From Chloroflexota bacterium (GTDB taxonomy: Bacteria; Chloroflexota; Anaerolineae; UBA2200): a stretch of 64,000 nt of DNA. Of this stretch, positions 6,946 through 25,490 are shown in pieces. The stretch lies in contig JAUWJD010000011.1 in assembly GCA_030607875.1 (NCBI GenBank), forward strand, positions 16,165 through 80,164, written 5' to 3'. A model generated the notes under the pieces. It saw only the letters and a list, made by a program, of their open reading frames with translations. It was not told where the DNA came from and ran no database searches. The position numbers and the translations under genes were made by a program. The first letter of the stretch is position 1; every line of letters starts with the position of its first letter.

Positions 6946-6960
6946 GACTCCGCGCAGTAC

Positions 6961-7051
6961 ACAGGGAGTGCAGAGGAAACAGAGCCATCAAAGTCCGCTC
7001 TGCTCCCTCTGCTCCCTCTGTACCCTCTGTACCCTCTGTTCCTTCCGTTCC
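6961..7051. repeat. Six tandem 9-bp units (CTCTG[C/T][T/A]CC, 6998-7051) with an inverted partial copy at 6961-6984
   Basis: ctctgctcc x2, ctctgtacc x2, ctctgttcc, ttccgttcc read directly. Confidence 0.85.
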
Positions 7052-7241
7052 CTGTGCAGCCTCTGGGGGGCGCGGGGTCTGTGGTATGGGACGTGGGCCA
7101 AGCCGTACAGCTCATACACCAGATGGTACGTCTGGCGGTCGGTGTCCTAGATAAGGCGGACGTAGCATCGAGGAACGTCAGGCGGCCGGTCCGCGGCCTG
7201 CCGCTGCCACAGTGGCTGGGGGGCAGGGCCTGCCTGTGGAC

Positions 7242-8042
7242 CTATCGCATGGTCCATAGGACGACTTTCAAGACAGTATCGTCCACGGCTTCGGCGCTCA
7301 AGCCGTGCTTCTTGGCAATTCGGGCTATGGCCGCCTGTTCTACTGCTTGGGGATCAGCAGTAGGCGAGTCCAGCTCTTCGTAGAGCTCTTCCCACTCCTT
7401 GGCCAGCTCGTATTCGTCCTGGGTCGGGCGGTGTTTCATAGCGTCCTCCGGCGCGCGCACCTTGCCCTGGTACGCGTACACGATCCGGTGAGTCGAGTAG
7501 TCGCCCGCCCGGGTTTCCGATGCCCTTGCCCAATCTCCGTTCGGAGCGTACGTACATCGAGCGATAGAATAGCCGCCGGAGAGCAAAGAACGCGAGTCGT
7601 ACATGAAGACGACCACGGCGTTGAGAGGCTTGCGTTGCTTGAGGTCCTGCACCGTGGCCTCGCAAATGTACGAAACGTCCGCGGTTGAGACTGGAAAGTG
7701 CGTGACCACGCTGACACGGAAGCGCACGGCGAGCGCGGTCGATACATCGTCGAGATCGACTGTGCGGAAGGAAACTCGCCGAGCAGCTACCGTTGGCCTT
7801 TCCATAGGCGGATGGGTCACCAGTGAGGGCGTGGCGGTAGGCCTGCGTCCAGACTGACCGAGTCCGCAAGCAACGGCAGATACCGCCAGGGCAAGCAGGA
7901 GGCAGACGACCACAGCCTTTCGGCATCCTCGCTTTGATACCGCCCGCGAGCGCGGGCTGGCCTGTTCCTGGGCCTGCTCGCATTGTTTGCACAAGACCTG
8001 CCCTTGTGGTACCTGGCGTCCGCACTCATTACAGCAAGGCAT
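7242..8042 (-). CDS. Hypothetical membrane-anchored protein: N-terminal zinc ribbon, TM/lipobox-like segment, extracytoplasmic domain
   Basis: CNECG...CKQC; LLLALAVSAVACG; GGAGGGA RBS. Confidence 0.7.
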   Translation of the reverse strand: MPCCNECGRQVPQGQVLCKQCEQAQEQASPRSRAVSKRGCRKAVVVCLLLALAVSAVACGLGQSGRRPTATPSLVTHPPMERPTVAARRVSFRTVDLDDVSTALAVRFRVSVVTHFPVSTADVSYICEATVQDLKQRKPLNAVVVFMYDSRSLLSGGYSIARCTYAPNGDWARASETRAGDYSTHRIVYAYQGKVRAPEDAMKHRPTQDEYELAKEWEELYEELDSPTADPQAVEQAAIARIAKKHGLSAEAVDDTVLKVVLWTMR

Positions 8043-8179
8043 AGATCCCTCCTTCCAAGGGCTCCTGCATGTAGGCCGGTGCTCACCAGCACAACATGGG
8101 CAGTGAGATGCCGCTGGGGAGCGTCAATAGCGTCGGACGACCTTCATGGGCTGCATACATCAGAGCCGTCAGTGGGTCT

Positions 8180-9028
8180 TCACGGCACTGTTATGGTGAT
8201 GTCACCGGTCCAGCCTGCGACTAGACTCCCGGGTATGATGGTAAAGGTCCTTTCGGAGGAGGGTACATCAAATGCCACAGCAAGGTACTCCCTGGCCCCA
8301 GGAGTCATTGACGCAGCGTACTCGGTACCGTACTTGTCCATCGCTGCCCAAGTTGCGCTCCTGTCGTCCTCATATGTTCTTCCGTGCGAGTCTTTCAACA
8401 GCAGTGTGCCATAGGCGACGAAGGTGTCTGTCATTGTTCCCTGGTTTGTAATATTCCCGAGGAGTACTACAATCTGGCGAGTGATGTCCTTCCCGGGGTC
8501 CGAGTGAACCGCAGCAATCTCAAACAGCCAATGGTCAACTCGCAGCACACCAATGAGCCTAGGAATAGGGCTGGGCGGAAGGGCAGTCCGGCTAGGTAGC
8601 GGCGTATGAGTTGGCTGAGCAGTATTCGTTGGATAAGGCGTGTACGTGGAGAGTGGCGTGTTCGTCGGGTAGGGTGTGTAGGTTGGGCGTGGCGCGTTCG
8701 TTGGATGAAACGTGTAGGTTGGAAGCGGTGCGTCCGTCGCGTATGGCGTCGCTGTGTGCACCAGTGCAGCACCCAGCTTGAGTGTAGGATAAGGTGTGTA
8801 GGTTGGATACGGTGTTGCGGAGGCCCTGGCGGTGGTCTGGCCCAAAGGGTAGACCCCCGTTAAAACAACTGCTGCCAGGCCGATAACGACTAGCAACCCA
8901 AAGCAGCCAAGGCAAGCCCATGCCACGGACTTCAGCCGCGCTCTCCTCTTTGCTTGTCTCTGCGCCGCGGCCCGCGCTAGTACTCCTCGCTCGATGATTC
9001 TGTGTCTTTCTTCGGGTGTTAGTTGCAT
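8180..9028 (-). CDS. Membrane-anchored protein with TPYPT repeats and a DUF4352-like C-terminal domain
   Basis: TM segment, repeated PTYTPYPT linker, LKDSHGRTY...PGAREYLAVAFDVP signature. Confidence 0.75.
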   Translation of the reverse strand: MQLTPEERHRIIERGVLARAAAQRQAKRRARLKSVAWACLGCFGLLVVIGLAAVVLTGVYPLGQTTARASATPYPTYTPYPTLKLGAALVHTATPYATDAPLPTYTFHPTNAPRPTYTPYPTNTPLSTYTPYPTNTAQPTHTPLPSRTALPPSPIPRLIGVLRVDHWLFEIAAVHSDPGKDITRQIVVLLGNITNQGTMTDTFVAYGTLLLKDSHGRTYEDDRSATWAAMDKYGTEYAASMTPGAREYLAVAFDVPSSERTFTIIPGSLVAGWTGDITITVP

Positions 9029-9677: not shown

Positions 9678-9702
9678 AAGACCTCCTTCTGTATCTCCAA
9701 CC

Positions 9703-9885
9703 AAGGAGCCCGTCCGGCGACTTGCCCCGCCTAACCATAGGCGGGACGCTTCGCAGCGGACGGACTGCTATGCTACAATGTGAGTGCTGCGATGTCCGCT
9801 GCACCGTGGCCGTATCCTGGACCGCCTCAACGGTTGCAGGGCTTCTTTCTACGCACTATTGTACAGCCGAAACTATGAGAATCAA
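9703..9885 (-). promoter_or_regulatory. Repeated promoter-leader-terminator module, copy A
   Basis: TTGATT-N16-TACAAT, then CCCTGC-hairpin-GCAGCGG...GTCCGTCCGCTGC, a REP hairpin and GGACGGGCTCCTT. Confidence 0.65.
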
Positions 9886-10603: not shown

Positions 10604-12049
10604 TCAGTAGCAATACTGTGACACCAGCTGCCCGTGTGCATCATAGAGATAGCCGCAGTCCCCTTTGTTGTTCCATATTGCACGGCCGCTGCCAAAGCTG
10701 AAACCGCACGTCTCAGGGTGAAACTCGTTGGTGTACACTCGGCATGCTTGCCTTGGGTGCAGAATGAAACCTGGAAAGGTGAAGTCCTGCCCGGGGTCAC
10801 CGGCGTTCAGTCGCCACCGGGCAAGGTTCACTGGGCCAAAACCCTGGTTGAAAACCTCTGCGTACTCGTCGCTCTCGACCCGCGGCACGACGCCGTCATA
10901 GAGGACGTAGCGGATGATCACGTTGGCTTGGCTTGGCCATGTGGGCGTGGCTGTTGCAGTTGGCGTCTGGGTCGGAATGACCGTTATGGTTGGCGTTGCC
11001 GTAGGCATCCCAGGTGGGGGAGGAATCTGGCGGCCACACCCGTAGTCACTTGTAACAAGTATCAGGTCGAAGAGATTGACTACATTATCGCCGTTGAGGT
11101 CAGCGCGTTGGTCGGAGACCGGCCCGTATGGGTTGTAGGCAGACGCCACAATGACCAGGTCGAAGATGTCTACGACGCCGTCACGGTTGGCATCGCCACT
11201 GCAAGCCGTGACGGGCTCATTCTGCAGGGTCACTGTCCAGCCAACACCATCGGTGGTGATCGTGACTGTACCATCGAGGTCAGTGCGGTAGATGCCGGCA
11301 CCGACACCCGCTAGTCTCTGCAACACCTCAGACCTGGGATGGCCGTACTGGTTTGGGCCAACGGAGATGATAGCCTCATGCGGTGTGACCGCGCTGAGGA
11401 ACTCGGCAGATGAACTTGAATTGCTGCCGTGGTGGGCTACCTTGAGAATCTCGGCTTCGAGTGGCAAGCCGCTGCGCAGCATTCGCCCTTCAGCGCCCGT
11501 CTCGGCGTCGCCTGTCAACAGAAAGTCCACGGAGCCGTAGGACACCCGCAACGCTATCGAGTTCTCGTTCTTGGAAACGTACAGCGGATCGGACGGGTTC
11601 AGCACCAGGGCCGTCACTTCACCCCATTGATAGCTTTGGCCCATCCTCACGGTCGCTACGACCACGCCCTTGTGAATCAGCGCCTGATAGAAATCCTGGC
11701 AGGTGCCTGTGGTGCAAGTGAGCGAGTCGAGCCACACCTCGTACACGGGCATGGAAGCCAAAACGTCCAGCAGGCCGCCGATGTGGTCAGCATCACCGTG
11801 GGTGGCTACCATAAGGTCAATGTCAGTGACGCCGTGCTGAGACAGGTAGGCCACCACTGTCGGCCCCGCGTGTGGCTTGCCGCCGTCCACCAGCACATCA
11901 TCGCCGTTGGGCAGGTGGAGCCAGCAGGAATCGCCCTGGCCTACGTCAATGAAGGTAGCCACAAGTGGGGTGTCTGCACGAAGCAAGAAATGAGGGTGCA
12001 GGAAGAAAGCAAGAGCGAGAACCAACAGAACGCCAAGTCTTGCTCGCAC
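10604..12049 (-). CDS. Secreted ComEC/Rec2-type metallo-beta-lactamase-fold hydrolase with dockerin and lamin-tail domains
   Basis: FIDVGQGDS, THGDADHIGG, KVAHHGS; GDANRDGVVDIFDL/DLNGDNVVNLFDL; DEYAEVFNQG...WNNKGD LTD motifs. Confidence 0.85.
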   Translation of the reverse strand: MRARLGVLLVLALAFFLHPHFLLRADTPLVATFIDVGQGDSCWLHLPNGDDVLVDGGKPHAGPTVVAYLSQHGVTDIDLMVATHGDADHIGGLLDVLASMPVYEVWLDSLTCTTGTCQDFYQALIHKGVVVATVRMGQSYQWGEVTALVLNPSDPLYVSKNENSIALRVSYGSVDFLLTGDAETGAEGRMLRSGLPLEAEILKVAHHGSNSSSSAEFLSAVTPHEAIISVGPNQYGHPRSEVLQRLAGVGAGIYRTDLDGTVTITTDGVGWTVTLQNEPVTACSGDANRDGVVDIFDLVIVASAYNPYGPVSDQRADLNGDNVVNLFDLILVTSDYGCGRQIPPPPGMPTATPTITVIPTQTPTATATPTWPSQANVIIRYVLYDGVVPRVESDEYAEVFNQGFGPVNLARWRLNAGDPGQDFTFPGFILHPRQACRVYTNEFHPETCGFSFGSGRAIWNNKGDCGYLYDAHGQLVSQYCY

Positions 12050-12314: not shown

Positions 12315-12930
12315 GTCTCTCGGGCATCAAGTCCCGGCCGTTTCTGAGGTTCTGGACCGCGAAGGTGTGCCGTTGGCGGTGCGGATCGACCGCGAGCACA
12401 CCAGCACGCCAATGTGTGCGCCGGCCTAGCCCTCGTGGGCAGCGAATAGACGCCGCGTGTGATAGGTTTGGCGCCTGTGACGGGTTGTGACAGGTTTCCC
12501 AGGAATTTTCAGCTGTACTGGCCTATAGGGAGAGTTTCCTGGCAAACTATACATGACTATACATCTATACACACCGGCGGTAGCCGCGCGGTGGCCGCGT
12601 CAGGACCTGATCCAGAAGCGAGAGGCTGTCTCGTGCTATTATGATACACCTGTTGTACACGCAGCTCATGCACGGATCAGTAGCTCATATCCCTGCGCCA
12701 CGGCTGCAGAGACAGGATCTCAGCGTGCGAGTCATTGTGTTTGCCAGCAAGACGGCCAGGGCGACGTTGTGCACACGTGGTCCGCCACATCAGAAGACAG
12801 TCGGTAGGACGACCGGCATATCGCACCGCCTTGTGAACCAGCTTCCGGCCGGCAAGACGACGCATGCGGCGGCCAGGGCTGTTGCAGAGCCCCTCAGGAA
12901 ATCCTAGAGCCCGCCCAAATGCTCAGCATG

Positions 12931-13067: not shown

Positions 13068-13349
13068 AGCATCAACTGCTTCGTGCACGGATATCCAAAC
13101 GCATCTCACCGAATCAAGGTAGAAGAAGCGCCATTTGCGCTTGGCAACCTTCGGCGCAGTACTCTGGAAGAGCAACTGTGAATCCGGCTCCTCGCTGGTA
13201 TGACCAGCCTGGCTTTGCGCTGTCCCATGAGCCTGAAGCAGACACGCCGGTCGAGACGATGCTGTACGACGGTCGCGCAGCATATTGTCTAGACTTTCCG
13301 GGTATGATGCAGGACATCTATTGGACCACTGGTTTAGGAAGGAGGGGAC

Positions 13350-15020: not shown

Positions 15021-16331
15021 TCAGGATGGCCTGGCTGACGGGGAATGGCGACTGCGCCCCGCCCAACAGCGGCGGGACGGTTCCCAGCCCCGCCCAACAG
15101 CGGCGGGACCTGCGGCAGGGGATGGCGGCAAGGATGCGATAAACCTGCCCACCAGATCAATGATCGCGCCCTCTTTCTGCCAGGCTTCCTCTCCCCATAC
15201 TCCGTGCAAGGCATTGGCAGTGGTGACAATGACCATGTCGAGTTCATGCAGCAAGACAATGAGGTTCCCACCATGCCCCCAGGCATAGTCAAAGTGATGT
15301 CTGCCTGCCCTGGCAGACCACCACAGGTAGCCATACCCGATGTCGCGGAAATAGCGGCCCAGCCGGTTGTTGTAGAGATTCTCTGAATACCTCTGCAGTG
15401 ATTCCCTCACCCAATGAGCTGGGATGATCTGCTGCCCTTTGTATTCACCGTCATTGAGGTACAGCAGGCCGAACTTGGCCGCATCGCGAGCGTTAAAAGA
15501 GATATCCCCGCTGCCGTAGTAGTAGCCGTTGGCATCGATCGGCCAGTAGCCCACCTGTGCGTTGAGCGGCGAGAAGAGATGCTGCTGAGCATATGACTTG
15601 AGATCTGTGTCGCACGCTCGGGCCACGATGACCGCCAGGAGATGGGCCGTGAGGTTGCTGTAGCCGAACGCAGTTCCTGGATCGCTGGTGAGGGCAAAAT
15701 CGACCATACGGGGCAGCCAATTGTTGTTCGACAGGAGCAGGTCAAGAGTGCCAGGCGTGAACTCCTCCCAGGGATATCCGGAGCGCATCTTCAAGATCTG
15801 CCCGATGGTGATCTCTTCCTTCCGCGCATCGGTGATCTGAGCGGCGAATTCGGGGAAGAAATCGATCATCCTCTGATCCAGGCTGCTCAAAAAGCCCTGC
15901 TGCAGTGCAATCCCCACCAACGCCGAGGTATAGCTTTGGGTCACCGAGGCCAGCGCCACCCGCTGCCCAATTGACCCGCCATTGAAGTACCGTTCCGCGA
16001 TCAGATAGCCGTTCTTGATGACCAGCAGGCCATAGATGGTGTCCAGGTCGGCCGCACGGCGATACAGCGCCGCCACAAGCTGCGGATCCAGTCCGTGCTC
16101 TGCGGGCGTCGACACCTTCCAGTCATCGCCGGGCAACGGTGTGTAGGCAAGCGCTTCTGGCTTCTTTGTCCAAGAGCCGCAAGCAACCAGCAGGGATAGG
16201 ATGGCGATGACACTGGTGATGAAGAGGATAGAATGCGGACGTCGCCCAGGCGAGAACATGAGGCAGGGCACGATATACTCCCGCATGCGTGACCTCAGCG
16301 TGTGGTTGTCTTTGCGCCCAGTCTTCATCAT
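15021..16331 (-). CDS. Serine hydrolase, beta-lactamase (AmpC-like) family lipoprotein; C-terminus reads through a REP
   Basis: ASVTQS (SxxK site with K to Q), YSN motif, WGHGGN; lipobox LLVAC. Confidence 0.85.
   Translation of the reverse strand: MMKTGRKDNHTLRSRMREYIVPCLMFSPGRRPHSILFITSVIAILSLLVACGSWTKKPEALAYTPLPGDDWKVSTPAEHGLDPQLVAALYRRAADLDTIYGLLVIKNGYLIAERYFNGGSIGQRVALASVTQSYTSALVGIALQQGFLSSLDQRMIDFFPEFAAQITDARKEEITIGQILKMRSGYPWEEFTPGTLDLLLSNNNWLPRMVDFALTSDPGTAFGYSNLTAHLLAVIVARACDTDLKSYAQQHLFSPLNAQVGYWPIDANGYYYGSGDISFNARDAAKFGLLYLNDGEYKGQQIIPAHWVRESLQRYSENLYNNRLGRYFRDIGYGYLWWSARAGRHHFDYAWGHGGNLIVLLHELDMVIVTTANALHGVWGEEAWQKEGAIIDLVGRFIASLPPSPAAGPAAVGRGWEPSRRCWAGRSRHSPSARPS
15057..15131. 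repeat. REP-like doublet CCCGCCCAACAGCGGCGGGAC x2
   Basis: Two palindromic units; the same family occurs at 16.4 and 20.3 kb. Confidence 0.85.
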
Positions 16332-16346
16332 GACACGTTATCCTTT

Positions 16347-16575
16347 CATGCGCGGCCCCGCCTCGCCGAACCACTGGCGAGACGCCCCACTCCGCTGTGC
16401 TTCGGGGACTTCCTCCGGTCGCTTCGCCCCGCCCAACAGCAGCGGGACGGTTCCCAGCCCCGCCCAACAGCAGCGGGACCTGCGGCAGCCTCGCCGAACC
16501 GCTGGCGAGACGCTTCGCAGGGGATGGCGGCAACCGGGTGTACCAGCCGGTGGTGTCGAGATGGCAACGTGAAGT
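16347..16575. repeat. Composite REP-like cluster
   Basis: CCCGCCCAACAGCAGCGGGAC x2, CCTCGCCGAACC(A/G)CTGGCGAGAC x2, and a flank shared with 20350-20403. Confidence 0.85.
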
Positions 16576-16704
16576 GCTGGCAATTACCACGGTCGGACTC
16601 TCACCGACTAGCAGACGACAGCTTCAGGACACACCAACCACCTGGTGGGCGGCATTGTTTCTTGTGTAGAAGCTCGTGCCAAGTAACTCTCCAAGCCGCA
16701 CACC

Positions 16705-16794
16705 AGCTAACGGAATAGTAGGCTGCCTGCCGTTTGGACTCCGAAGGCAAAAGACTGGACTGCACTTTTATGTACAGTCATGTTTCCGTTAGAT
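16705..16794 (-). mobile_element. Degenerate integron attC-like site after the GNAT gene
   Basis: Minus strand ATCTAAC (RYYYAAC) ... GTTAGCT (GTTRRRY); CTAACGGAA/TTCCGTTAG are complementary; overlaps the gene 3' end. Confidence 0.55.
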
Positions 16795-17272
16795 CCTTGA
16801 AATAGCGAACCAAAGGTAAGGCAGTATAGCCAGCCTTCTCGTATGATTTTCTGGCAGGGGCGTGAGATGCGTCTCCGCCGGTCTCAACCCTTGCCATTGT
16901 CATCCCACTGTCTTTCATCGTTCTAAGCGCGAAGGTGTTCAATTCTGTGCCTATTCCAAGATTCTGATATTGGGGATGGACGGCGAGCAGTTGAACTTCT
17001 CCAGTCTTATCTTTGAGGTTTAATTCATAAGCCAGAAAGCCAACAACTATGCCATCTAATTCTGCAACCCAGACAATGGTTTTCTCACCATCGCTGCAAA
17101 CCGTTTCGATGGCCTCTCTTTGACTGGTTCTCCAATCCGGCCAAATCAATGTATAGATATTGTGACCCAATACTCGCTCAAATGAACTAAAGACCGGGGC
17201 CCATGCCAATAATGATAATCGAACCAAGTCTCTAACGTCACTATTACAAACAGGTCGAATATGCAGATTCAT
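16778..17272 (-). CDS. GNAT family N-acetyltransferase
   Basis: LLAVHPQYQNLGIG motif A; ARKSYEKAGY; AT-richer DNA. Confidence 0.9.
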   Translation of the reverse strand: MNLHIRPVCNSDVRDLVRLSLLAWAPVFSSFERVLGHNIYTLIWPDWRTSQREAIETVCSDGEKTIVWVAELDGIVVGFLAYELNLKDKTGEVQLLAVHPQYQNLGIGTELNTFALRTMKDSGMTMARVETGGDASHAPARKSYEKAGYTALPLVRYFKDLTET

Positions 17273-17423
17273 AATGATCCTCTTTTCGCAGCAGGGTGCA
17301 TAGGCAAGCGAGTCTTGCAGGGTAGCGATGGGGATGCCCCATCCTCCGCCTCTGCCAAACATGCCAACGGAAGTCAACACGACTGTTCCGCCATTCCTCT
17401 TCATCAAGTGACAAGATTACATT

Positions 17424-17470
17424 CAATAACGTGCGGCGCTTTCGGCGTCCGCTGCCAGCCGTGGCTAGGC
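17424..17470 (-). mobile_element. Partially deleted attC-like site
   Basis: GCCTAGCCACGGCTGGCAGCGGACGCCGAAAGCGCCGCACGTTATTG resembles GCCTAAC..GCAGCGGAC..CGTTAG attC families; shorter than a canonical attC. Confidence 0.4.
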
Positions 17471-17546
17471 CGCTTTTTGGGGGACATATACTCTTACAAC
17501 CTGCTATCAGCCTCTCACTCAACAAAACTCGCTAGCTCGTAGATGG

Positions 17547-18443
17547 TTATTTTACACATCGAAACCCTAGATATGCCAGACTGAGTTGTTTTGCTCTCGG
17601 CCACACCCTTCCATCATAGACAATTATGTAGGCGTGTTCTTCATCTACCTCTGTCGCCGTCCACCAGTAGATCACCTGGGAATGTGCATTCCACAGCGGA
17701 GACTCTTTGTCAGGGGTCGTTTTGTAGGTAGCCTTGGCGATTTCTGCATCCCATAGCCCACCACTGTTCTGGCCGTGGCGAGCCATAGAGCGCACGGCTT
17801 CATCCACCGTCGGCAATCGCCAAATGTGCTGTGGGATAGGGGCGGGGGTCAGGCCATCTTCGCCGAGATATTGGCACACCTGCTGCGCTTCAGACCAGTT
17901 CAGCCCTTTGCGCGGCCATCCTGGTCCATCGGGAGCCCAGATAAGATTCACCCCGTTTCCAGGCACCAATCGGGCCTGGAGAAACCCATCATCAAAACGT
18001 TGGGACACTCGGAGGACGGGTTCTATGCCAAGTATAGTGAGGGTCAGAATGGGAAGTCCAATCGCCAGGGAGACAGCTATCTTGCGTGGTTGCGGACGAC
18101 CAAACCAGTGAAGCACACCCAACCCAACCAGTGGCACGATGAGCAAAAACGTGGCCGTGTTGGTGAATGCTTGAAAGAACCAGGCAGCGAGCAAGGCGAA
18201 GATCACATGTAGGCCACCGCCAACCCGGGGCCTGGAGATTGAAATGAGCGTGACTGCCATAAAGATGAGCATCGGGCTAAGATACTGTACGAACATCAAT
18301 CCCACGTTCGACAGCAAGGACTCGTAATACCAACCTTCGTGAAAGTTCTCAACAATGCCCCAGAATGCCCAAAAGCAGGTGATGACGGTAGAAAAACCCA
18401 CCGCAATCCATCCTACTATCTGGCGCTTGTCGAGGTGTTTCAT
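17547..18443 (-). CDS. Membrane protein with C-terminal DUF1566 (Lcl-like) domain
   Basis: N-terminal TM helices; LNWSEAQQVC...WRLPTVDE...YWWTATE...FRCVK. Confidence 0.8.
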   Translation of the reverse strand: MKHLDKRQIVGWIAVGFSTVITCFWAFWGIVENFHEGWYYESLLSNVGLMFVQYLSPMLIFMAVTLISISRPRVGGGLHVIFALLAAWFFQAFTNTATFLLIVPLVGLGVLHWFGRPQPRKIAVSLAIGLPILTLTILGIEPVLRVSQRFDDGFLQARLVPGNGVNLIWAPDGPGWPRKGLNWSEAQQVCQYLGEDGLTPAPIPQHIWRLPTVDEAVRSMARHGQNSGGLWDAEIAKATYKTTPDKESPLWNAHSQVIYWWTATEVDEEHAYIIVYDGRVWPRAKQLSLAYLGFRCVK

Positions 18444-18460
18444 CGTGCTACTCCTTTGCG

Positions 18461-18584
18461 GCCTAGATGGCCAAGCTCACGTGCGCCCTACGAAGCCAGC
18501 ACCGCGCTCGCTGGGCGAAACACGTGACTATAATCGACGATTCTCGCCACGTTAGGAGGCGTCAGGTGCAGCGCCTTCTTGGAC
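18461..18584 (-). mobile_element. Degenerate attC-like site between add and the DUF1566 gene
   Basis: GTCCAAGAAGGCGCTGCACCTGACGCC ... GGCGCACGTGAGCTTGGCCATCTAGGC; complementary L/R arms, both cores mutated. Confidence 0.6.
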
Positions 18585-18612
18585 CCGCTGTCTCCACACA
18601 AGACCTGTATGG

Positions 18613-19608
18613 TCAAGAACTCTGCTGATAGCCGTTTGCCAATCGTGCCAGAAGCTTGTTTCGCACATCATCTGGCAGGAAGGCTGCTTGCAGTGCATTC
18701 CGGTTGCAGTGGAAAAAGTCTTGGGTATCCCATCCAAACGCTTGATGCAACTTTGCGTACTCTTGGTTTAGCGTAACACCCACCAGAGTACGTCCATCGG
18801 TGTTCACACTAACTGGTATTCCCGCCCGATAGAATCTGTCGATGGGATGATCGGCATAGGTGTCATAGATATTTGTTTGTACGTTGCAGGTTGGACAGAC
18901 TTCGAGATGGATCTGCCGTTGCCGCAGGTGCTCAACCAACGCGGGATCTTCGATACTTCGTACGCCGTGGCCGAGGCGTGACGGAGCAAAGTGCAACAAT
19001 GTTTCCCACACATTGATGGGTCCACGTGCTTCTCCGGCGTGTGCAGTGCAGGGAATACCCCTGTCGCGCGCATACTGAAATGCAGCCATGTGGGCATCAA
19101 TTACACTCCCTGCTGTACCCGCCTCACTGTCGAACCCTGCTACGTACGTGCCACGAAAGTCTTCCACTAAATGCACGGTTTCAAGACTTTGTGCTGGCGA
19201 ATAATAGTGTAACGTACAAAGAATGATCCGCGCTTCGATTCCAGTGCTGCGGACACCCTCGGCGGTTGCCGCGTCCACACTGGCGACGACTTGGCGGGGT
19301 GAGAGCCCTCTTTCGGTGTGCAGCAGGGGGGCAAACCGCATCTCAGCATACAGCACGTTGTCTCTGCGCAGTTGCTCAAACAAGTCCAAGGTCACGAGGC
19401 GAAGCTGCTCTTCTGTCTGCATGAGTGGATAACTGCTGGGAGCACACGCGAGGAGCTCCGCCAAATCCACACACTTGGTTGGGGCAATGAACTTTGTACG
19501 GTACTCCTCAAGCGTGATCGACGGATCGATTTGCGAGACGACCTCATAGCTGAGCGAGCAATCTAGATGAAGGTGCAATTCAACTTTGGGGAGTTCAGTC
19601 CAATCCAT
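18613..19608 (-). CDS. add: Adenosine deaminase
   Basis: ELHLHLD, TAHAGE, RLGHG, EVCPTCN, NTDG. Confidence 0.92.
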   Translation of the reverse strand: MDWTELPKVELHLHLDCSLSYEVVSQIDPSITLEEYRTKFIAPTKCVDLAELLACAPSSYPLMQTEEQLRLVTLDLFEQLRRDNVLYAEMRFAPLLHTERGLSPRQVVASVDAATAEGVRSTGIEARIILCTLHYYSPAQSLETVHLVEDFRGTYVAGFDSEAGTAGSVIDAHMAAFQYARDRGIPCTAHAGEARGPINVWETLLHFAPSRLGHGVRSIEDPALVEHLRQRQIHLEVCPTCNVQTNIYDTYADHPIDRFYRAGIPVSVNTDGRTLVGVTLNQEYAKLHQAFGWDTQDFFHCNRNALQAAFLPDDVRNKLLARLANGYQQSS

Positions 19609-19753
19609 CGTTTTGCCTCCTTTCAGATAGAAATGGCTGCTTTACTGCTTCGTGCACGGATCGCTAAGCGTATCTCACTGAATCATGGTCCCGTCAGGCG
19701 GGATGAACGACATGAGAAGGACCATTTGAGTTTGGCGACCTTCGACGCAGTAC

Positions 19754-20010
19754 TCAGTAGGTTCTGCTGACCGCATCAAACAGCATTCGCAAGAACTGCT
19801 CACGCGATGCTTCCAAAACGACCTCTGCGTTGGGTTCGCGACCCATCAGGAGCAAATGATCAACGACCGACTGGCCCCGGCATAACGGACTCGCCGTCTC
19901 AAGCGCCACGAAGCAGCGGTGTGTCCTCGTGGCGACGGTTGGGTCAAGCGCAATGGCCATCGCAATCGGGTCGGGCAAGTCAAAACCCAACAAGCGCGTC
20001 CTGGTGAGCG
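19754..20010 (-). pseudogene. C-terminal fragment of an inosine/uridine-preferring nucleoside hydrolase
   Basis: LPDPIAMAIALDP...RGQSVVD...PNAEVVL; no N-terminal DxDxxxDD region. Confidence 0.7.
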
Positions 20011-20248
20011 CGAATTGTTGTACGGTCTTTTGGATGTCAACACAAAGTATGGCATGGCTCCAAGAACGTGGCGATGGAGTACCCACAAGCGCGGTCCGAC
20101 TACTGATTATGTGGAGTCTTTCCGTACAACACCCTGTAGGCCGACCTTATCCGCAATCCCTTCGCGAGTAACCCCGCCTCAGCGTTTTCTTGGCTTGCAC
20201 CCCCAGCACGCGCACGTATCCACCAAAGACAAGCCCGTCCACGCGCAT

Positions 20249-20403
20249 GCCCCGCCCAACTGCGGCGGGACGCAGGCGGCCCCGCCCAACTGCGGCGGGA
20301 CCTGCGGCAGCCTCGCCAAACCCCGCCGTACAGAGGGCGGGACTCTGCAGATGGCGACAACCGGGCGTACGAGCCGCCGGTGTCGAGCGGCGTGCAGTGG
20401 GCG
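20249..20403. repeat. REP-like cluster
   Basis: CCCCGCCCAACTGCGGCGGGAC x2 plus CCCCGCCGTACAGAGGGCGGGAC (also at 12143). Confidence 0.85.
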
Positions 20404-20455
20404 ACCAAGGGAAGGCTGAAGCGACTTGACAGGCGCCTGAAAACACCCAGCCATT

Positions 20456-20953
20456 CTATCCCAGCACCTTTTTCAGTACCCCAAAAGAGAAAATGTCACT
20501 GATGCTCTGCACGAACCTGATGTTTTTCAGGTTGTCGCTGGCCAGTGATCCACGCAGGATGATGGGGGTCAGATCAAGATCCTGGGCACCTCGATACGTG
20601 GACAGCACGCAATACTCGGCGCAAAAACCGGTGATGATGACCGTGTCTACGCCAAGGTCTCGCAATTCGTCCTCCAGCGTTGTTTTATTGAAGGAATTGC
20701 CATACGTCTTGTGGATATGCAGGTCCGAGGGCAGTATGTCTAACTGCTCGGGCAATTCGAATCCCTCCTCGCCTGGTACGAGCTTCTCCTCTTCATCGAC
20801 ATGTTGGACGCAGATGACCGGCAGGTCCTTCTCTCTGAACAGCGCGATGGCTGCGTTGATATACTCAATAGCATCGTTGAGAGATTGTGCCGTTGTCGGA
20901 CTGAACGTGAAGAATTTCTTCTGGACGTCAATCACTAACAGGGCCAGCTTCAT
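20456..20953 (-). CDS. Isochorismatase-family cysteine hydrolase
   Basis: ALLVIDVQ, KTYGNSF, ITGFCAEYCV catalytic D-K-C. Confidence 0.92.
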   Translation of the reverse strand: MKLALLVIDVQKKFFTFSPTTAQSLNDAIEYINAAIALFREKDLPVICVQHVDEEEKLVPGEEGFELPEQLDILPSDLHIHKTYGNSFNKTTLEDELRDLGVDTVIITGFCAEYCVLSTYRGAQDLDLTPIILRGSLASDNLKNIRFVQSISDIFSFGVLKKVLG

Positions 20954-21014
20954 TTGAACCTCCCTAATGTGCTGAGTTTTCGCTCACTACCGATTGGTGC
21001 TTCTTCGTCCAGGC

Positions 21015-21140
21015 GGCAAACGGAAAAGCTGAGCTGCCGCGCGGCCTGGCAAAACCAACTTGGGAAAGGGCGAACCCGGAAACGAGACCAGCCTCGATTC
21101 TGGTGCGCGACAGCGCGGTCAGCTTCAGCGAGAGTTATGC
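21015..21140 (-). mobile_element. Best-preserved integron attC site
   Basis: GCATAAC-TCTCG-CTGAAGCTGACCGCGC ... GCGCGGCAGCTCAG-CTTTTCC-GTTTGCC; 126 bp; R''/L''/L'/R' order with complementary arms. Confidence 0.7.
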
Positions 21141-21230
21141 GGCCCACTGGCCCACTGCCGCCAGCCACAACAAAGGGGTGGTAGGTTTGGGCAGGCACAA
21201 CGAGGCGCCTACAACACTGATTGCCACCAA

Positions 21231-22742
21231 TCAGGGATAATCCTTCACCACCAATGGCAGGTAAGTAAACCATTGGTGCCTGAACTCATCCGCGCCGATG
21301 TCGTAGCCGCTCCCTTGCGGACGGGTGTCCCCGTCAATGTCGACCATCACCCCGGCGTCCACGCCCGCATCAATGGCCGCCGCGCCAGGGGCGAGGTGGT
21401 AGTCGCCGCCGTCGGGATCAAGCAAGTCCGGGTCGCCCCAGATGTTCACCGTACCGCTGAGGATGGCACCATCCCCGGCCCAGTCGGTGAGATTGGCCCA
21501 GGGGCCAAAGCCCCACAGGGTGGCTTCCAGCGTGGCCGTGCTCCCCGCCGTCACCGTGATGCCCACCGTGTGGCTGGCGATGATAGTGTTGGGCAGAGCC
21601 ATCGTGGCATCTTGCCCGACAAATACACCCACGCCATCCCCAGCGGTGTTGCGGACGATGGTGTTGTGCCTGAATATGGGGGAGGCTTGCCTAACGTAAA
21701 CTCCTGCACCTCTAGGAGCTTTGTTATCAGCAAAAACGTTATTGTGCACTTTTGTGTCATTGTAACTGATGTACATGCCTCCGCCATAATCGCTGACCTC
21801 GTTATTCAGAATGAGATTACCCGAAACTACGGCGGAGGTTCCGACGTTTATCCCAATCCCACCTCCCTCGCTTCCCTGATTATCACGAATAACGTTTCCC
21901 ACGATGGTTGCGGCTGCGCCGCTCAAGTAGATCCCACCCCCCCTCTCACCCACATTGTCCTGGAACAGATTATCCTCAACCAGGGCTTGAGTCCACATCA
22001 GATACATCCCCCCTCCAAACAAAGAGGTGTTGGAGAGGAATTGATTATGGCGGAAGACGGGCGAGCCGGAGATGACACGAACCCCTCCGCCCCACCTGGC
22101 CGTGTTGCTGATGATAAGGTTGTTTTCCAATTGGGCATTGCTGGAGATGACAGCAATCCCTCCGCCTAATCCCTGCCCTGCACTCGATGCCGGCCCAGCA
22201 TTGTTATTGATGATGGTGCAGTGGTTTATGAAGGCATTGGTTTCGTGGATGTACACGCCACCTCCGGCGTCATCACTGCTATACCCGCCCAGCCCGGTAG
22301 CACTGCCGTGCCTGATGACTAACCCATCAAGGACAGGGGCAACCGGTCCACTGATGTACACAACCCGCCGTGCCCCTTCCCCGTCCAGCACGGTGGGGTA
22401 GGCATCCGGGTCGCGCACCACAGAGCCGGTGGGCGATCCGTCCCAGCCGCCGTAGAGGGTGATGGATTTGGCAATAGTGACAACGGCTGCGCCGGTGCCG
22501 GTGTAGATGCCCTCGGCCACGTAGATGGTATTGGCGCCGGCGGCCTGGGCCAGCGCGGTTTGCAGGGCGCAGGGTTGGGCCTGGGTGCACGCGGTGCCGC
22601 TGCCGGTGGGCTTGACGAACAGGTCAGCGGGGTCGGCGCGAGCTACCTGTGATGTTCCACTCAAGAACAGAACCAACCCGACCAGGAGCAGTCCACTAGT
22701 TGCCATGCCGAAAACGATATGCCTGTACTTGCTGGGGTTCAT
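21231..22742 (-). CDS. Secreted right-handed parallel beta-helix protein with C-terminal YLPLV motif
   Basis: Signal peptide, repeated GGGI/GGGM..N PbH repeats, DIGADE, FTYLPLVVK. Confidence 0.85.
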   Translation of the reverse strand: MNPSKYRHIVFGMATSGLLLVGLVLFLSGTSQVARADPADLFVKPTGSGTACTQAQPCALQTALAQAAGANTIYVAEGIYTGTGAAVVTIAKSITLYGGWDGSPTGSVVRDPDAYPTVLDGEGARRVVYISGPVAPVLDGLVIRHGSATGLGGYSSDDAGGGVYIHETNAFINHCTIINNNAGPASSAGQGLGGGIAVISSNAQLENNLIISNTARWGGGVRVISGSPVFRHNQFLSNTSLFGGGMYLMWTQALVEDNLFQDNVGERGGGIYLSGAAATIVGNVIRDNQGSEGGGIGINVGTSAVVSGNLILNNEVSDYGGGMYISYNDTKVHNNVFADNKAPRGAGVYVRQASPIFRHNTIVRNTAGDGVGVFVGQDATMALPNTIIASHTVGITVTAGSTATLEATLWGFGPWANLTDWAGDGAILSGTVNIWGDPDLLDPDGGDYHLAPGAAAIDAGVDAGVMVDIDGDTRPQGSGYDIGADEFRHQWFTYLPLVVKDYP

Positions 22743-22801
22743 CTTTCACTCCTTCTGTTTTGTTGAGCGCAGGCGGCACAACCACTGATTAGGCTGCGCG
22801 C

Positions 22802-23446
22802 CTATGCTTCACCTAGAACGACACCAGGATGACGTAAGTAGTCTTGCACTTGAGCATAGAACCTCCCCATGTGTATTCCATCCATTAGTGCATGATGTGC
22901 TTGCACACTCAATGGCATCTTTAGGAACTGGCCATCCTCGAAGAATTTCCCCCATGCAAACCGTGGTATAGAATCCGCTGGATGTAAACGAAGCGGGTGC
23001 ATAAAGCTTGTGAACGACACCCATGGTATCGCCGTCATGTACAACCGGTCGTCTTGTCCCGGCTCGTCTTTGACCGTCGGATGTTGCTGCACATAAGCGA
23101 TCTGCTCCGCGGCTCTCGCTGCAAACAATGAGAAGTCCTCAGTATAGTCAATCGAACAGAAGCTGAACAGATCCTCATTCGTTAGAATGGTTGTGGATGG
23201 GTGTACGATCTCGTGCTCTATCACCTGTCCCGCCCGAATGCGATACCGGAACTCGGGAATTGCGTTCGCTGCTCGTGCCAGTAGGTACACTGTCGCCACG
23301 TTGAACGAAATGCCACGCTGCTTGACAACAGGATAGAATGCTGTCAGGTCTATATTTGCACACAAGCTGAAGTGTGGATAGGTCCAGGCGCTAAGAAGCC
23401 TGAAATGCTCGCGTCGTGGCCAAGTCTCCAGGTTAATGTGACGCAT
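22802..23446 (-). CDS. cat: Type A chloramphenicol acetyltransferase family protein
   Basis: INLETWPRREHF, AIPWVSFTS, PRFAWGK, QAHHALMDG catalytic His motif. Confidence 0.85.
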   Translation of the reverse strand: MRHINLETWPRREHFRLLSAWTYPHFSLCANIDLTAFYPVVKQRGISFNVATVYLLARAANAIPEFRYRIRAGQVIEHEIVHPSTTILTNEDLFSFCSIDYTEDFSLFAARAAEQIAYVQQHPTVKDEPGQDDRLYMTAIPWVSFTSFMHPLRLHPADSIPRFAWGKFFEDGQFLKMPLSVQAHHALMDGIHMGRFYAQVQDYLRHPGVVLGEA

Positions 23447-23524
23447 ACTTCACCTCCAGATCGATACGTGAATAGCTTCCAATGTCGTTCCTCCCTAGCC
23501 CAATGCGCGCACGTCTTTGGGAGT

Positions 23525-23680
23525 AGAAAGCCCGCCCACTGCCATTTGCAGCGGACGGGCTGTCATACACAATAAAGTTGCTCCGGTCCCCGCTGCAGAG
23601 CAGCCGTACATTGGACTTTTGCCAAGTCGCAGGGTTCTTATCTTGCCGCGATTCTACTTCTGAACCTTCGCTGCTGTCAA
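23525..23680 (-). promoter_or_regulatory. Repeated promoter-leader-terminator module, copy C (no REP insert)
   Basis: TTGACA-N18-TAGAAT; terminator AGCCCGTCCGCTGC-AAATG-GCAGTGGGCGGGCT-TTCT. Confidence 0.7.
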
Positions 23681-23950
23681 GTCTCTTGGACACAAGTCCC
23701 CGGCGCTTCTGGGGTACTGGATGGCGAAGGTGTGTGCTGGCGGTGCGGATCGACCGCGACCACACCAGAACGCCAGTGTGTACGGCGGCCTGGCCCTTGG
23801 AGGCAGCGAATGTCCGCCAAGTGTGACGGGTTTGGCGCCTGTGAAGGGTTGTGACGGGTTTCCCAGGAATCTTGAGCTGTACTGGCCTATAGGGGAAGTT
23901 CCTGCAAAAACCCTACACGACCATACACAGTGACAGCAGCTACGCACTTT

Positions 23951-23984
23951 AGGACTGGCAGTCCGAGGAAGGACTGCCAGTCCT
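23951..23984. terminator. 14-bp inverted-repeat hairpin downstream of the lipoprotein gene
   Basis: AGGACTGGCAGTCC-GAGGAA-GGACTGCCAGTCCT. Confidence 0.55.
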
Positions 23985-24058
23985 AGCCGAGTACGTGATA
24001 CAAGTGTCCGAGTTCCTTGGCGGACTTGCGCTCAGGATGACAATGTGCTGCGGAGCGA

Positions 24059-25302: not shown

Positions 25303-25490
25303 AAAAGCCCCTCCACCGGCTTGCCCCTCGGGTCGCAGCCTCGCCGCACACATGGCGAGACGCTCCGCGGCGGACGGGCTTGGATGTGTTGTGTGTTCCC
25401 TGCTGCGCGGTGGCCGTGGCCACGTCTGCTCCAGCAGCGAGGGACTTTTTGTGCACCGTCACTGCACACCCGAACTGTGAGAGCCTTACG
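25303..25490 (-). promoter_or_regulatory. Repeated promoter-leader-terminator module, copy D (diverged)
   Basis: CTCACAGTTCGGGTGTGCAGT matches the copy A promoter; ACGGCCAC, GCAGCAGGG, AGCCCGTCCGCCGC, REP insert, GGAGGGGCTTTT. Confidence 0.55.

Follow-up and report, generated by a model that had tools for sequence, protein, structure and literature searches.

The region between about 16.6 and 23.5 kb of the window, by which we mean the whole 64-kb stretch of DNA that was analysed, is very probably a fossil integron cassette array without an integrase (CALIN); its host is an uncultured Anaerolineales (Chloroflexota), in whose chromosome it lies. Read along the minus strand, the cassettes would be, in order, CAT (chloramphenicol acetyltransferase family), a beta-helix protein, an isochorismatase, a truncated nucleoside hydrolase together with adenosine deaminase (ADA), a DUF7670/Lcl_C protein and a GNAT acetyltransferase (Table 1). 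An attC hairpin would formerly have stood at the end of every cassette, and an integron integrase would cut such a hairpin between the G and the TT of R', leading to cassette insertion, excision or shuffling. Only the attC after the beta-helix gene retains both cores (AAC and GTT) together with a bottom strand that can fold; the remaining sites have mutated cores, are truncated or are swollen by REP-like units, and one would be split by a group II intron stub. Since the window contains no intI and the assembly only intI fragments, the cassettes are probably now fixed chromosomal genes; both this loss of mobility and the present mode of gene expression are what we infer for the locus.

Table 1. 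Features of the array and its surroundings (window positions).
Feature	Position	Strand	Details
Putative relic R' at CAT cassette 5' junction	23484..23490	-	CAT upstream alignment, window vs L073
CAT	22802..23446	-	214 aa; Pfam PF00302, E 8.8e-38
Candidate truncated attC relic of CAT cassette	22762..22794	-	R''-like GCCTAAT and short stem, no R'
Beta-helix protein cassette ORF	21231..22742	-	503 aa; Pfam PF13229
attC of beta-helix cassette	21015..21140	-	R1 20.9 bits; R2 30.1 bits, E 5.6e-5
Isochorismatase-family cassette ORF	20456..20953	-	165 aa; Pfam PF00857
Decayed swollen attC of isochorismatase cassette	20094..20434	-	341 nt; downstream-region alignment, 19 contigs
Inosine-uridine nucleoside hydrolase pseudogene	19754..20086	-	C-terminal 110 aa; Pfam PF01156
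MITE-like repeat copy	19642..19761	+	35 nt upstream of ADA start codon; nhmmer profile
Adenosine deaminase (ADA) ORF	18613..19608	-	331 aa; Pfam PF00962, E 3.7e-80
Dead attC after ADA	18461..18584	-	R2 18.5 bits, E 0.033; R1 10.8 bits
DUF7670/Lcl_C-domain membrane protein ORF	17547..18443	-	298 aa; weak Pfam PF24709 and PF07603
Possible truncated attC relic	17424..17470	-	GCCTAGC CACG GCTGGCAGCGGAC ... GTTATTG; left half resembles lineage consensus by eye
GNAT acetyltransferase ORF	16778..17272	-	164 aa from likely ATG; Pfam PF00583
Intrinsic-terminator-like hairpin and T run at GNAT stop codon	16758..16779	-	Terminator scan
Putative attC left-half relic, 5' exon of intron stub	16635..16650	-	GCCCACC AGGT GGTTG
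ORF-less mini group II intron 5' stub	16564..16634	-	71 nt; family-profile nhmmer E 5.6e-14
GC-rich mosaic repeat	16357..16577	+	Two REP-like units (16428-16448, 16459-16479) and short hairpins

The best-preserved attC and the isochorismatase cassette

An attC consists of R'' (RYYYAAC) and R' (GTTRRRY), with L''/L' pairing that leaves extrahelical bases and a spacer of 5-8 nt, in a total of 57-141 nt. We built two surrogate covariance models, R1 and R2, distinct from IntegronFinder's own, from 14 and 18 known attCs, respectively, taken from class 1 plasmids, Thiodictyon, same-family genomes and one site on contig C37 of this genome, none of them from the window. These models are small and their E-values rough, as the tool itself warns; they recover untrained attCs next to intact intI in relatives with 30-45 bits.

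The attC-like palindrome predicted at 21015-21140 was confirmed as an attC by covariance models, nhmmer and bottom-strand folding. With 126 nt, R'' GCATAAC, L'' CTG-A-AGCTGAC paired with GGCAGCTCAG, and R' GTTTGCC (predicted cut after its G), it keeps the AAC and GTT cores, and R' shows two departures from the consensus. With a sequence-only profile it ranks third in the 3.37-Mb genome (E 0.007), and its bottom strand folds into an R box, a spacer and a bulged L stem (z -2.2). Its right end (CTCAGCTTTTCCGTTTGCC) matches at 17 of 19 positions the first attC (CTGAGCTTTTCCGTTTGAG) beside the intact intI of the related genome G004.

The isochorismatase gene has homologues in 80 metagenome loci or contigs (71-92% identity), which together carry 18 attC hits. 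These score 16-47 bits; all of them share the strand of the gene, and several directly flank it. Homology to the window stops at 21015-21029, the R' of the attC above, in 16 independent contigs and never goes beyond 21049; those contigs have GTTAGCC in place of the window's GTTTGCC. By this comparison of sequences, the isochorismatase gene is a cassette elsewhere. One could object that this is an ordinary variable chromosomal region, its palindromes being terminators and REP/MITE-type repeats and its attC-like matches chance in GC-rich DNA. Indeed, dispersed repeats abound in the genome (154 MITE-like hits, GC-rich palindromic units), a terminator-like hairpin accounts for one of the claimed attCs, two of the claimed sites do not pass the model, and neither short BLAST nor the left-half matrix gave significance. 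Chance, however, explains neither the 30-bit match, its genome-wide rank and the match to the G004 attC, nor the co-oriented attC hits near isochorismatase homologues and the stop of homology at R', and we consider this explanation very improbable compared with a fossil array.

The predicted half-site, placed here at about 20414-20434, turned out, by homology to intact attCs in other copies of this cassette, to mark where the decayed attC belonging to the isochorismatase cassette begins. Its R''-L'' reads GCCTGTC AAGT CGCTTCAGCC against GGCTAAC AAGT CGCTGCAGCCGAC in intact copies, and its R' GTCGGAC against GTTAGGC in locus L072, so that both window cores are mutated; L072 matches window positions 20147-21021, most of the cassette, at 82.5%. 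Two REP-like units (20251-20271 and 20281-20301) lie inside this site.

Decay at the other junctions

Pfam searches agree with the predicted GNAT, DUF1566 (here DUF7670/Lcl_C), add and isochorismatase genes on the minus strand. That the genes share a strand is correct, but it is nothing special: between 15 and 53 kb, almost every gene lies on the minus strand. The description of the genes as promoter-poor was not substantiated (7 promoter-like sites, compared with 4.4 +/- 1.8 in shuffles); they had also been called partly AT-rich, and the GC content at 17-20 kb, 0.51-0.55, is below the value of about 0.57-0.62 that prevails over most of the stretch. The supported sites begin 29-91 nt past a stop codon and end 18-62 nt before the next start, on the genes' strand.

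As indicated in Table 1, the nucleoside hydrolase is reduced to its C-terminal part: the pseudogene begins 8 nt past the relic R', and the PF01156 match covers only 213-296 of the 297 profile positions. In four loci (L055, L057, L059 and L061) the DNA immediately upstream of ADA is homologous and would have room for a complete hydrolase gene. The window ADA is 42% identical to the family-wide ADA on contig C29, and the window type occurs in nine Anaerolineales MAGs (63-84% identity) with mostly non-homologous flanks; from these comparisons it is evidently an accessory paralogue. In the relative G002 (about 85% identical in shared genes), GNAT and ADA are found in differing contexts.

The palindrome predicted after ADA was confirmed as a decayed attC with dead cores. 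It starts 29 nt past the ADA stop, finishes 18 nt before the next start codon, and consists of R'' GTCCAAG, L'' GCT-G-CACCTG paired with CACGTGAGC, and R' ATcTAGGC. The L box retains 8 of 9 pairs, but the cores, which would be AAC and GTT in an intact site, read AAG and A-T-c-T. G002 has a conserved counterpart of the left half downstream of its ADA, and the site after ADA in L055 reaches 6.2 bits only. The support for 18461-18584 comes from the lineage-enriched model R2; its minimum-energy fold is not attC-like, and it had no genome-wide match with the sequence-only profile (E<=10) or short BLAST (E<=1).

At the CAT cassette, positions 23484-23490 read GAACGAC where the homologous cassette of L073 has GTTACGAC, and this one homologue suggests a relic R'. 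The half-site predicted on the other side of the gene (placed here at 22788-22794) finds weak support in the same cassette, whose homologous position after CAT reads GCCTGAC-CTCG-CCTGGAGCCGGC, but it is not significant by itself. CAT, ADA and beta-helix genes are found in relatives in other orders or as proven cassettes. The CAT homologue of L073 (74% identity) adjoins an isochorismatase cassette (order isochorismatase, attC, CAT), and that of L056 (66%) follows tandem ADA genes (ADA, ADA, CAT). A beta-helix homologue (33% identity; gene L025, 11064-12137) lies between two attCs (12490-12553 and 10859-10990) in an integron of the same-family genome G007.

The palindrome at 17424-17470 scored 1.6 bits with R2 and 13.9 with a left-half weight matrix, within the null range, and is at best a truncated attC relic; that matrix did not separate window sites from shuffled sequence. 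The candidate at 16705-16794 was rejected (3.8 bits or less with R2), its palindrome being explained by the terminator-like hairpin. Of the four attC palindromes originally predicted, 21015-21140 and, in decayed form, 18461-18584 stood, but 17424-17470 and 16705-16794 are not demonstrable attCs. The RYYYAAC said to overlap the GNAT 3' end (ATCTAAC) reads ATTTGAC in G002. The GNAT open frame extends to 17407, beyond the likely ATG, and the G002 homologue, with 81% identity, is found on the opposite side of the msrPQ-like pair. Its position and the intron stub suggest that GNAT was a cassette, and position suggests the same for the DUF7670 gene.

Small repeats and an intron stub

Four features had been overlooked in the original prediction, namely the stub of an intron, a MITE-like element, REP-like units and the truncation of the nucleoside hydrolase. 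The repeats and the stub are located in or beside dead attCs. The MITE-like repeat is dispersed, about 97-120 nt long, with its hits on both strands throughout the genome (nhmmer profile); the window copy is absent from the corresponding place in G002. A repeat finder and a pattern search gave 6 REP-like units in the window (0.04 expected) and 16 genome-wide. Clusters similar to the mosaic repeat lie at 15052-15118, 20244-20341, about 9700 and about 25335, and the mosaic repeat itself scored 16.9 bits with R2 on the plus strand, without L-box pairing.

The stub is in sense orientation relative to the cassettes. Rfam RF02003 matched 16508-16610 (minus strand) with 20.9 bits, below gathering, a threshold that fuller genomic copies reach. 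The family has 14 copies in the genome and one in another Anaerolineales MAG, with the target motif; RYYYAAC-N3-4-CGCTG, in some cases degenerate, stands just 5' of 11 of the 14 genomic copies, and by analogy we read 16635-16650 as a putative attC left-half relic. In the relic integron on C37, exon-exon joining restores an attC. A search of the genome with TIGR04416 found no group II reverse transcriptase (RT). We put forward, tentatively and with more doubt than confidence, that these ORF-less mini group II introns of about 290 nt home to the top strand of attCs, co-oriented with the cassettes, with insertion immediately downstream of the base that bulges out of L'' (R''-N3-4-CGCTG^CAG...), and that, with the REP-like units, they disable attC hairpins and so weld cassettes into the chromosome. 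Group IIC-attC introns of the S.ma.I2 type, in comparison, code for an RT/maturase and run antisense to the cassettes, their insertion point being TTGT/T of R'' on the bottom strand (PMC3001079, PMC7923331). The relics described here likewise lie in attCs of cassette arrays and CALINs, but the family is ORF-less, about 290 nt long, in sense orientation and placed after RYYYAAC-N3-4-CGCTG inside L''. With the stub and its fuller relatives in sense orientation and no group II RT in the genome, they do not belong to the group IIC-attC introns.

Integrase, known arrays and the state of the locus

By the reported account of Cury et al. in 2016, CALIN is the IntegronFinder category for a cluster of attC sites lacking an integron integrase. 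The category is used here as in PMC7923331. With R2, two sites on the same strand lie 2.4 kb apart, that is, at least two attCs within 4 kb; with R1 only 21015-21140 passes. An Rfam scan of 14-26 kb, in a collection that does not include IntegronFinder's attC model, gave no attC family match. The absence of intI from the 64 kb was confirmed by a whole-genome TIGR02249 search, and no integron integrase lies within 4 kb: the nearest match, a 28.8-bit fragment (C51:6475-6612), is separated from the array by more than 25 kb. Of a complete integron, with intI, attI and Pc beside the array, the window has no intI, and no attI was identified. Further intI fragments occur on C60 and on C37, which carries a relic integron with a 56-bit attC; all intI sequences found are fragmentary, either interrupted by stops or lacking one half. 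The proposed cassette cluster without integrase, its cores mutated to differing degrees, is supported by the evidence.

The locus resembles other CALINs in its co-oriented attC-type sites, each downstream of an ORF, without a nearby intI, and in the intI pseudogenes of its genome. It differs in that a general model no longer recognises most of its sites, REP-like units have enlarged one attC to 341 nt, a 5'-truncated gene is joined directly to a relic R', and the host is an Anaerolineales MAG. With the sedentary chromosomal integrons of its family and class (G004 and G007) it shares an attC pattern of GCCYAAC, a spacer of 2-5 nt, G(C/T)TG-CA(G/C)C(C/T)GAC and GTTAGSC, and with G007 a beta-helix homologue that is a cassette; unlike the window, with its mostly dead sites and no intI, those arrays begin beside an intact intI and have attCs of 45-73 bits.

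The array might still be alive, the cassettes bounded by 21015-21140 being movable in trans by an integrase encoded elsewhere, in the genome, its unassembled 16% or a mobile element. That site has both cores, its L stem is bulged and its bottom strand folds stably. With the MAG at 84% completeness, an intact intI may have been overlooked, and intact intI is common in the class (25 of 61 relatives). All other junctions have mutated cores, however, so that no cassette has two usable sites, and the only intI sequences found are the fragments described above; we thus consider such mobility unlikely.

A fossil array, our preferred reading, would be an integron array caught late in decay, in a phylum and order (Chloroflexota, Anaerolineales) where integrons have rarely been examined. 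General knowledge of integrons is unchanged, with the possible exception of a sense-oriented, attC-specific mini group II intron family, of which the window contains only one stub; if true, disabling of attCs by introns and REP-like units would be one route to the fixation of integron cargo. The locus illustrates the death of attCs junction by junction, through point mutations in the cores, truncation, enlargement by small repeats and insertion of an intron, while the cargo ORFs stay open. The purine-salvage pair of nucleoside hydrolase and ADA, CAT and isochorismatase appear to circulate as cassettes among sediment Anaerolineales.

attC sites recognised by covariance models

Since Rfam has no attC family, we built our own attC models. 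Real attCs came from three sources, namely class 1 plasmid arrays, the Thiodictyon plasmid integron and arrays upstream of intact intI in two relatives (G004 and G007), and two covariance models were made with canonical pairing (R box of 7 bp; L box of 3+6 bp, singly bulged). R1 contains 14 sites; R2 contains 18, with added same-lineage attCs and one from contig C37 of the genome of the window (G000), none coming from the window itself. In relatives, R1 gave 30–45 bits to attCs that it had not been trained on and that lie next to intI genes; one held-out site reached only 16.5 bits and one AT-rich attC was missed, making R1 a usable but imperfect surrogate. Both models stand in for the published attC model and their E-values are rough. 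A strict RYYYAAC...GTTRRRY pair scan and an ad hoc arm-alignment scan were abandoned because they missed class 1 attCs, and a left-half weight matrix proved non-discriminating, its null maximum (12–18) overlapping the candidates; its best window match (20.9), at 20787–20809 (minus) within the isochorismatase coding sequence, was taken as chance. The training attCs had no significant match in the G000 genome by short BLAST.

Genes of the region and matches of the window scan with R2 (filters off)
Feature	Position	Strand	Score	Remark
R2 match	9729-9811	plus	R2 14.8 bits	loose alignment, wrong strand
beta-lactamase-like protein	15021-16331	minus		
R2 match	16365-16428	plus	R2 16.9 bits	no L-box pairing
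GNAT	16778-17272	minus		open frame up to 17407
DUF7670/Lcl_C membrane protein	17547-18443	minus		
attC	18461-18584	minus	R2 18.5 bits, E 0.033; R1 10.8 bits	supported, weaker
adenosine deaminase (ADA)	18613-19608	minus		
inosine-uridine nucleoside hydrolase	19754-20086	minus		last 110 aa; Pfam match confined to profile positions 213-296 of 297
isochorismatase	20456-20953	minus		
attC	21015-21140	minus	R2 30.1 bits, E 5.6e-5; R1 20.9 bits	supported
beta-helix protein	21231-22742	minus		
chloramphenicol acetyltransferase family (CAT)	22802-23446	minus		

Both supported attCs had been proposed as palindromes in the original prediction, and the model edges fall exactly on the coordinates proposed. 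The stronger one, GCATAAC-TCTCG-CTG(A)AGCTGACCGCGC ... GCGCGGCAGCTCAG-CTTTTCC-GTTTGCC, begins 91 nt past the beta-helix stop codon, leaving 62 nt to the isochorismatase start, and its right end agrees at 17 of 19 bases with the first attC of the G004 array, next to that genome's intact intI (CTGAGCTTTTCCGTTTGAG). A sequence-only profile ranked it third in the whole genome (E 0.007), behind C37:36086-36213 and C59:4410-4540. When about 400 kb of other G000 contigs were scanned with the covariance model, 19 bits was exceeded only once, by the attC (56 bits) of the relic integron on C37. The C59 site is itself attC-like (GCCCAAC AAGT CGCTG CACCCGAC ...; nhmmer E 0.0028 genome-wide).

The weaker site, GTCCAAG-AAGGC-GCT(G)CACCTGACGCC ... 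GGGCGCACGTGAGC-TTGGCC-ATcTAGGC, owes its support to the lineage-enriched model R2. It begins 29 nt past the ADA stop codon, with 18 nt left before the next start codon, and in the relative G002 the left half is also kept at this position behind ADA. Eight of the nine L-box pairs are kept; AAC has become AAG and GTT is gone, so that the crossover point is destroyed. Bottom-strand folding agreed for one of the two sites: 21015-21140 showed an R box, an open spacer and a bulged L stem (z -2.2), while the minimum-energy fold of 18461-18584 was not attC-like.

Isochorismatase and other array genes outside the window

An exact look-up of the isochorismatase protein returned no record; 312 relatives were found in metagenome contigs, of which we took 80 (71–92% identity). 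R2 gave 18 attC matches (16–47 bits) in these 80 contigs, all 18 on the gene's strand, and in several contigs (L100, L117, L119, L074, L068) attCs lie directly beside the gene, as in L100 with an attC at 322-450, the isochorismatase at 526-1020 and another attC at 1089-1217. DNA homology with the window stops at 21015-21029 in 16 contigs and at 21040-21049 in two, never beyond. At the stop the other isochorismatase contigs read GTTAGCC, with divergent sequence upstream, and the window reads GTTTGCC; judging from these alignments, the stop would mark the R' crossover, at which the window carries one substitution.

On the 3' side of the gene, the attC of the intact copies starts GGCTAAC-AAGT-CGCTGCAGCCGAC, where the window has GCCTGTC-AAGT-CGCTTCAGCC. 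The half-site predicted near 20415-20437 is homologous to this attC start once shifted by a few bases, to 20434-20414. Another metagenome contig, L072, shares window positions 20147-21021 at 82.5%, which is most of the isochorismatase cassette and includes one REP-like unit; its cassette ends in GTTAGGC, and the window reads GTCGGAC (20100-20094). From the intact copies and L072 together it follows that the isochorismatase attC spans 341 nt, with both cores mutated and two REP-like units; homology appears to prove a swollen attC.

The same genes, sought as cassettes elsewhere, were found between attCs or in other orders. Besides the flanked isochorismatase, the G007 integron holds a beta-helix homologue (33%) between two attCs; L073 carries isochorismatase, attC and CAT (74% identity) in that order, and L056 carries ADA, ADA, CAT. 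In the latter, from an uncultured Chloroflexia MAG (6001-8718), the accessory ADA is a tandem duplicate (81% identical DNA, 47 nt apart) followed by the CAT homologue, with no attC between the genes. ADA was found in nine Anaerolineales MAGs at 63–84% identity, with mostly non-homologous flanks; in four of them (L055, L057, L059 and L061) DNA homology extends beyond ADA on its upstream side by about 960 nt, which is the full length of a nucleoside hydrolase gene. An attC after ADA in L055 was rejected, R boxes being there with a score of only 6.2 bits. The window ADA is an extra paralogue, with 42% identity to the family-wide copy on contig C29. In G002 (about 85% identity in shared genes) GNAT lies across an msrPQ-like pair and ADA has other neighbours. 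The G002 neighbours of GNAT, msrPQ and ADA have no syntenic homologues in G000, the aldo-keto reductase alone having a distant one on contig C19, and the outer limits of the island were thus not set by synteny.

Other proposed junctions, composition and repeats

The original list of sites was borne out at 21015-21140, at 18461-18584 and, with a shift of a few bases, at 20434-20414, and found no model support at 16705-16794 and 17424-17470. The former scored at most 3.8 bits in a local R2 scan; at the GNAT stop there is an 8-bp hairpin with a T run (16758-16779), which has the form of an intrinsic terminator. The RYYYAAC of the GNAT 3' end, regarded as a cassette feature, belongs to the coding sequence, and G002 has ATTTGAC there. 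The probable attC trace after GNAT lies further on, GCCCACC-AGGT-GGTTG at 16650-16635, and a mini group II intron stub comes next, consisting of 71 nt of the 5' end (16634-16564). At 17424-17470 (1.6 bits in a local scan) the right arm is mostly missing; a lineage-consensus-like left half and GTTATTG are present, and the site would at best be a truncated attC relic. As for a half-site placed at 22775-22795, GCCTAAT (22794-22788) does align with GCCTGAC after the L073 CAT, but this is one homologue only; with the same single homologue, the CAT 5' junction is GAACGAC in the window versus GTTACGAC.

All genes at 15–26 kb, among them the four described as co-oriented, are on the minus strand, but this is not special to the array since nearly all genes share that strand throughout 15–53 kb. 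The region is indeed partly AT-rich (GC 0.51–0.55 at 17–20 kb versus about 0.57–0.62 elsewhere); its description as promoter-poor did not hold, promoter-like sites showing no depletion (7 versus 4.4 ± 1.8 in shuffles). A near-consensus promoter-like site (TTGACA-18-TAGAAT, 11/12) precedes CAT by about 205 nt, at 23651-23680 (minus); upstream of it, a 612-nt gap contains a 15-bp inverted repeat at 23950-23985, perfect and with a loop of 6 nt.

Three repeat families occur within the array: a MITE-like element, REP-like units and ORF-less mini group II introns. The REP-like palindromic unit CCCGCCCAACnGCnGCGGGAC is found six times in the window, with 0.04 expected, and 16 times in the genome. The MITE-like element (97–120 nt, long imperfect terminal inverted repeats) has 154 nhmmer matches in the genome on both strands, and the copy at 19642-19761, 35 nt before the ADA start, is missing there in G002. 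The family is also present at 13075-13168, with arms TACTGC...CGCTAAAC / GTTTAGCG...GCAGTA, and a central hairpin distinguishes its short from its long forms; one copy is close to a Xer-like recombinase gene (C2:41436-42263), about 190 nt away. For its GCTAAAC/GTTTAGC arms, the 97-nt repeat was considered as an attC family and rejected: conservation extends beyond the arms, the matches are ubiquitous and on both strands, and no model matched. GC-rich mosaic repeats at 9700-9811, 15052-15118, 16357-16577, 20244-20341 and 25335-25377 consist of short hairpins of the type CyCGCC-N8-GGCGrG-AC, always just downstream of a minus-strand gene, and in part also lie inside two mini-intron copies of contig C11. 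As plus-strand attCs these repeats were discarded for the absent L-box pairing and the wrong strand.

Integrase fragments and mini group II introns

The TIGR02249 model has no match in the 64-kb window, in agreement with the claim that intI is absent from it. In G000, a 3.37-Mb MAG that is 84% complete, it detected a C-terminal intI fragment at C60:32093-32506 (183 bits, model positions 185-313) and an N-terminal one at C37:32572-32922 (111 bits), ending in a stop. The former keeps the IntI-specific ALERKYPNA...W.WQYV stretch with a garbled catalytic region, and has 64% identity to an annotated integron integrase and 51% to IntI1. Above the curated cut-off, intI is present in 25 of 61 relatives of the class, including G001, G004, G007 and G009 of the same family. 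The N-terminal fragment belongs to a relic integron (C37:32572-37132; L037 12772-17332), where it occupies the minus strand and three cassettes the plus strand; two of these are unannotated (309 aa and 380 aa), and in the third, a 293-aa ORF, a nucleotidyltransferase-like motif was seen by eye. The 56-bit attC is at C37:36086-36213, and the attC between cassettes 1 and 2 is split by a mini group II intron of about 290 nt.

This ORF-less intron has 14 copies in G000, with Rfam RF02003 and RF00029 at gathering scores on C11 and C37. No reverse transcriptase for it was found in the G000 assembly, nor an RT-bearing master copy in G000 or in six RT loci of relatives. Exact or degenerate RYYYAAC-N3-4-CGCTG, which is the R''-spacer-L'' start of an attC, precedes 11 of the 14 copies, and the joined C37 exons, ACCTAAC-AATGC-GCTG/CAGGCGAC ... 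CGCCTGAAC-TTCAC-GTCATAT, are attC-shaped. Published IIC-attC introns occupy R'' of the bottom strand and are antisense to the cassette genes (PMC3001079, PMC7923331); in contrast, all copies here are sense to the neighbouring genes. On C11 (20403-33639; L044) six copies or stubs are found within 13 kb, all on the genes' strand and five of them after the exact or degenerate motif; with an attC-like site at L044 11092-11218 (18.8 bits), the locus is probably another cassette array that has been invaded. A copy of the intron also occurs in another Anaerolineales genome, which has an intact intI on a different contig; this copy (L055 8058-8224) comes after GCCTAAC TCAG CGTG, and the hydrolase-ADA pair lies one cassette upstream of it.

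Altogether, two minus-strand sites that score on the attC models, isochorismatase cassettes elsewhere and intI present only as fragments in the assembly bear out the interpretation of 16705-22800 as a fossil CALIN (a cluster of attC sites lacking an integron integrase). The data support a CALIN-type fossil of an integron array: one of its attCs is well preserved, a second is dead but can still be recognised, a third is swollen, and two or three further junctions are traces only. CALINs are an already known kind of element.
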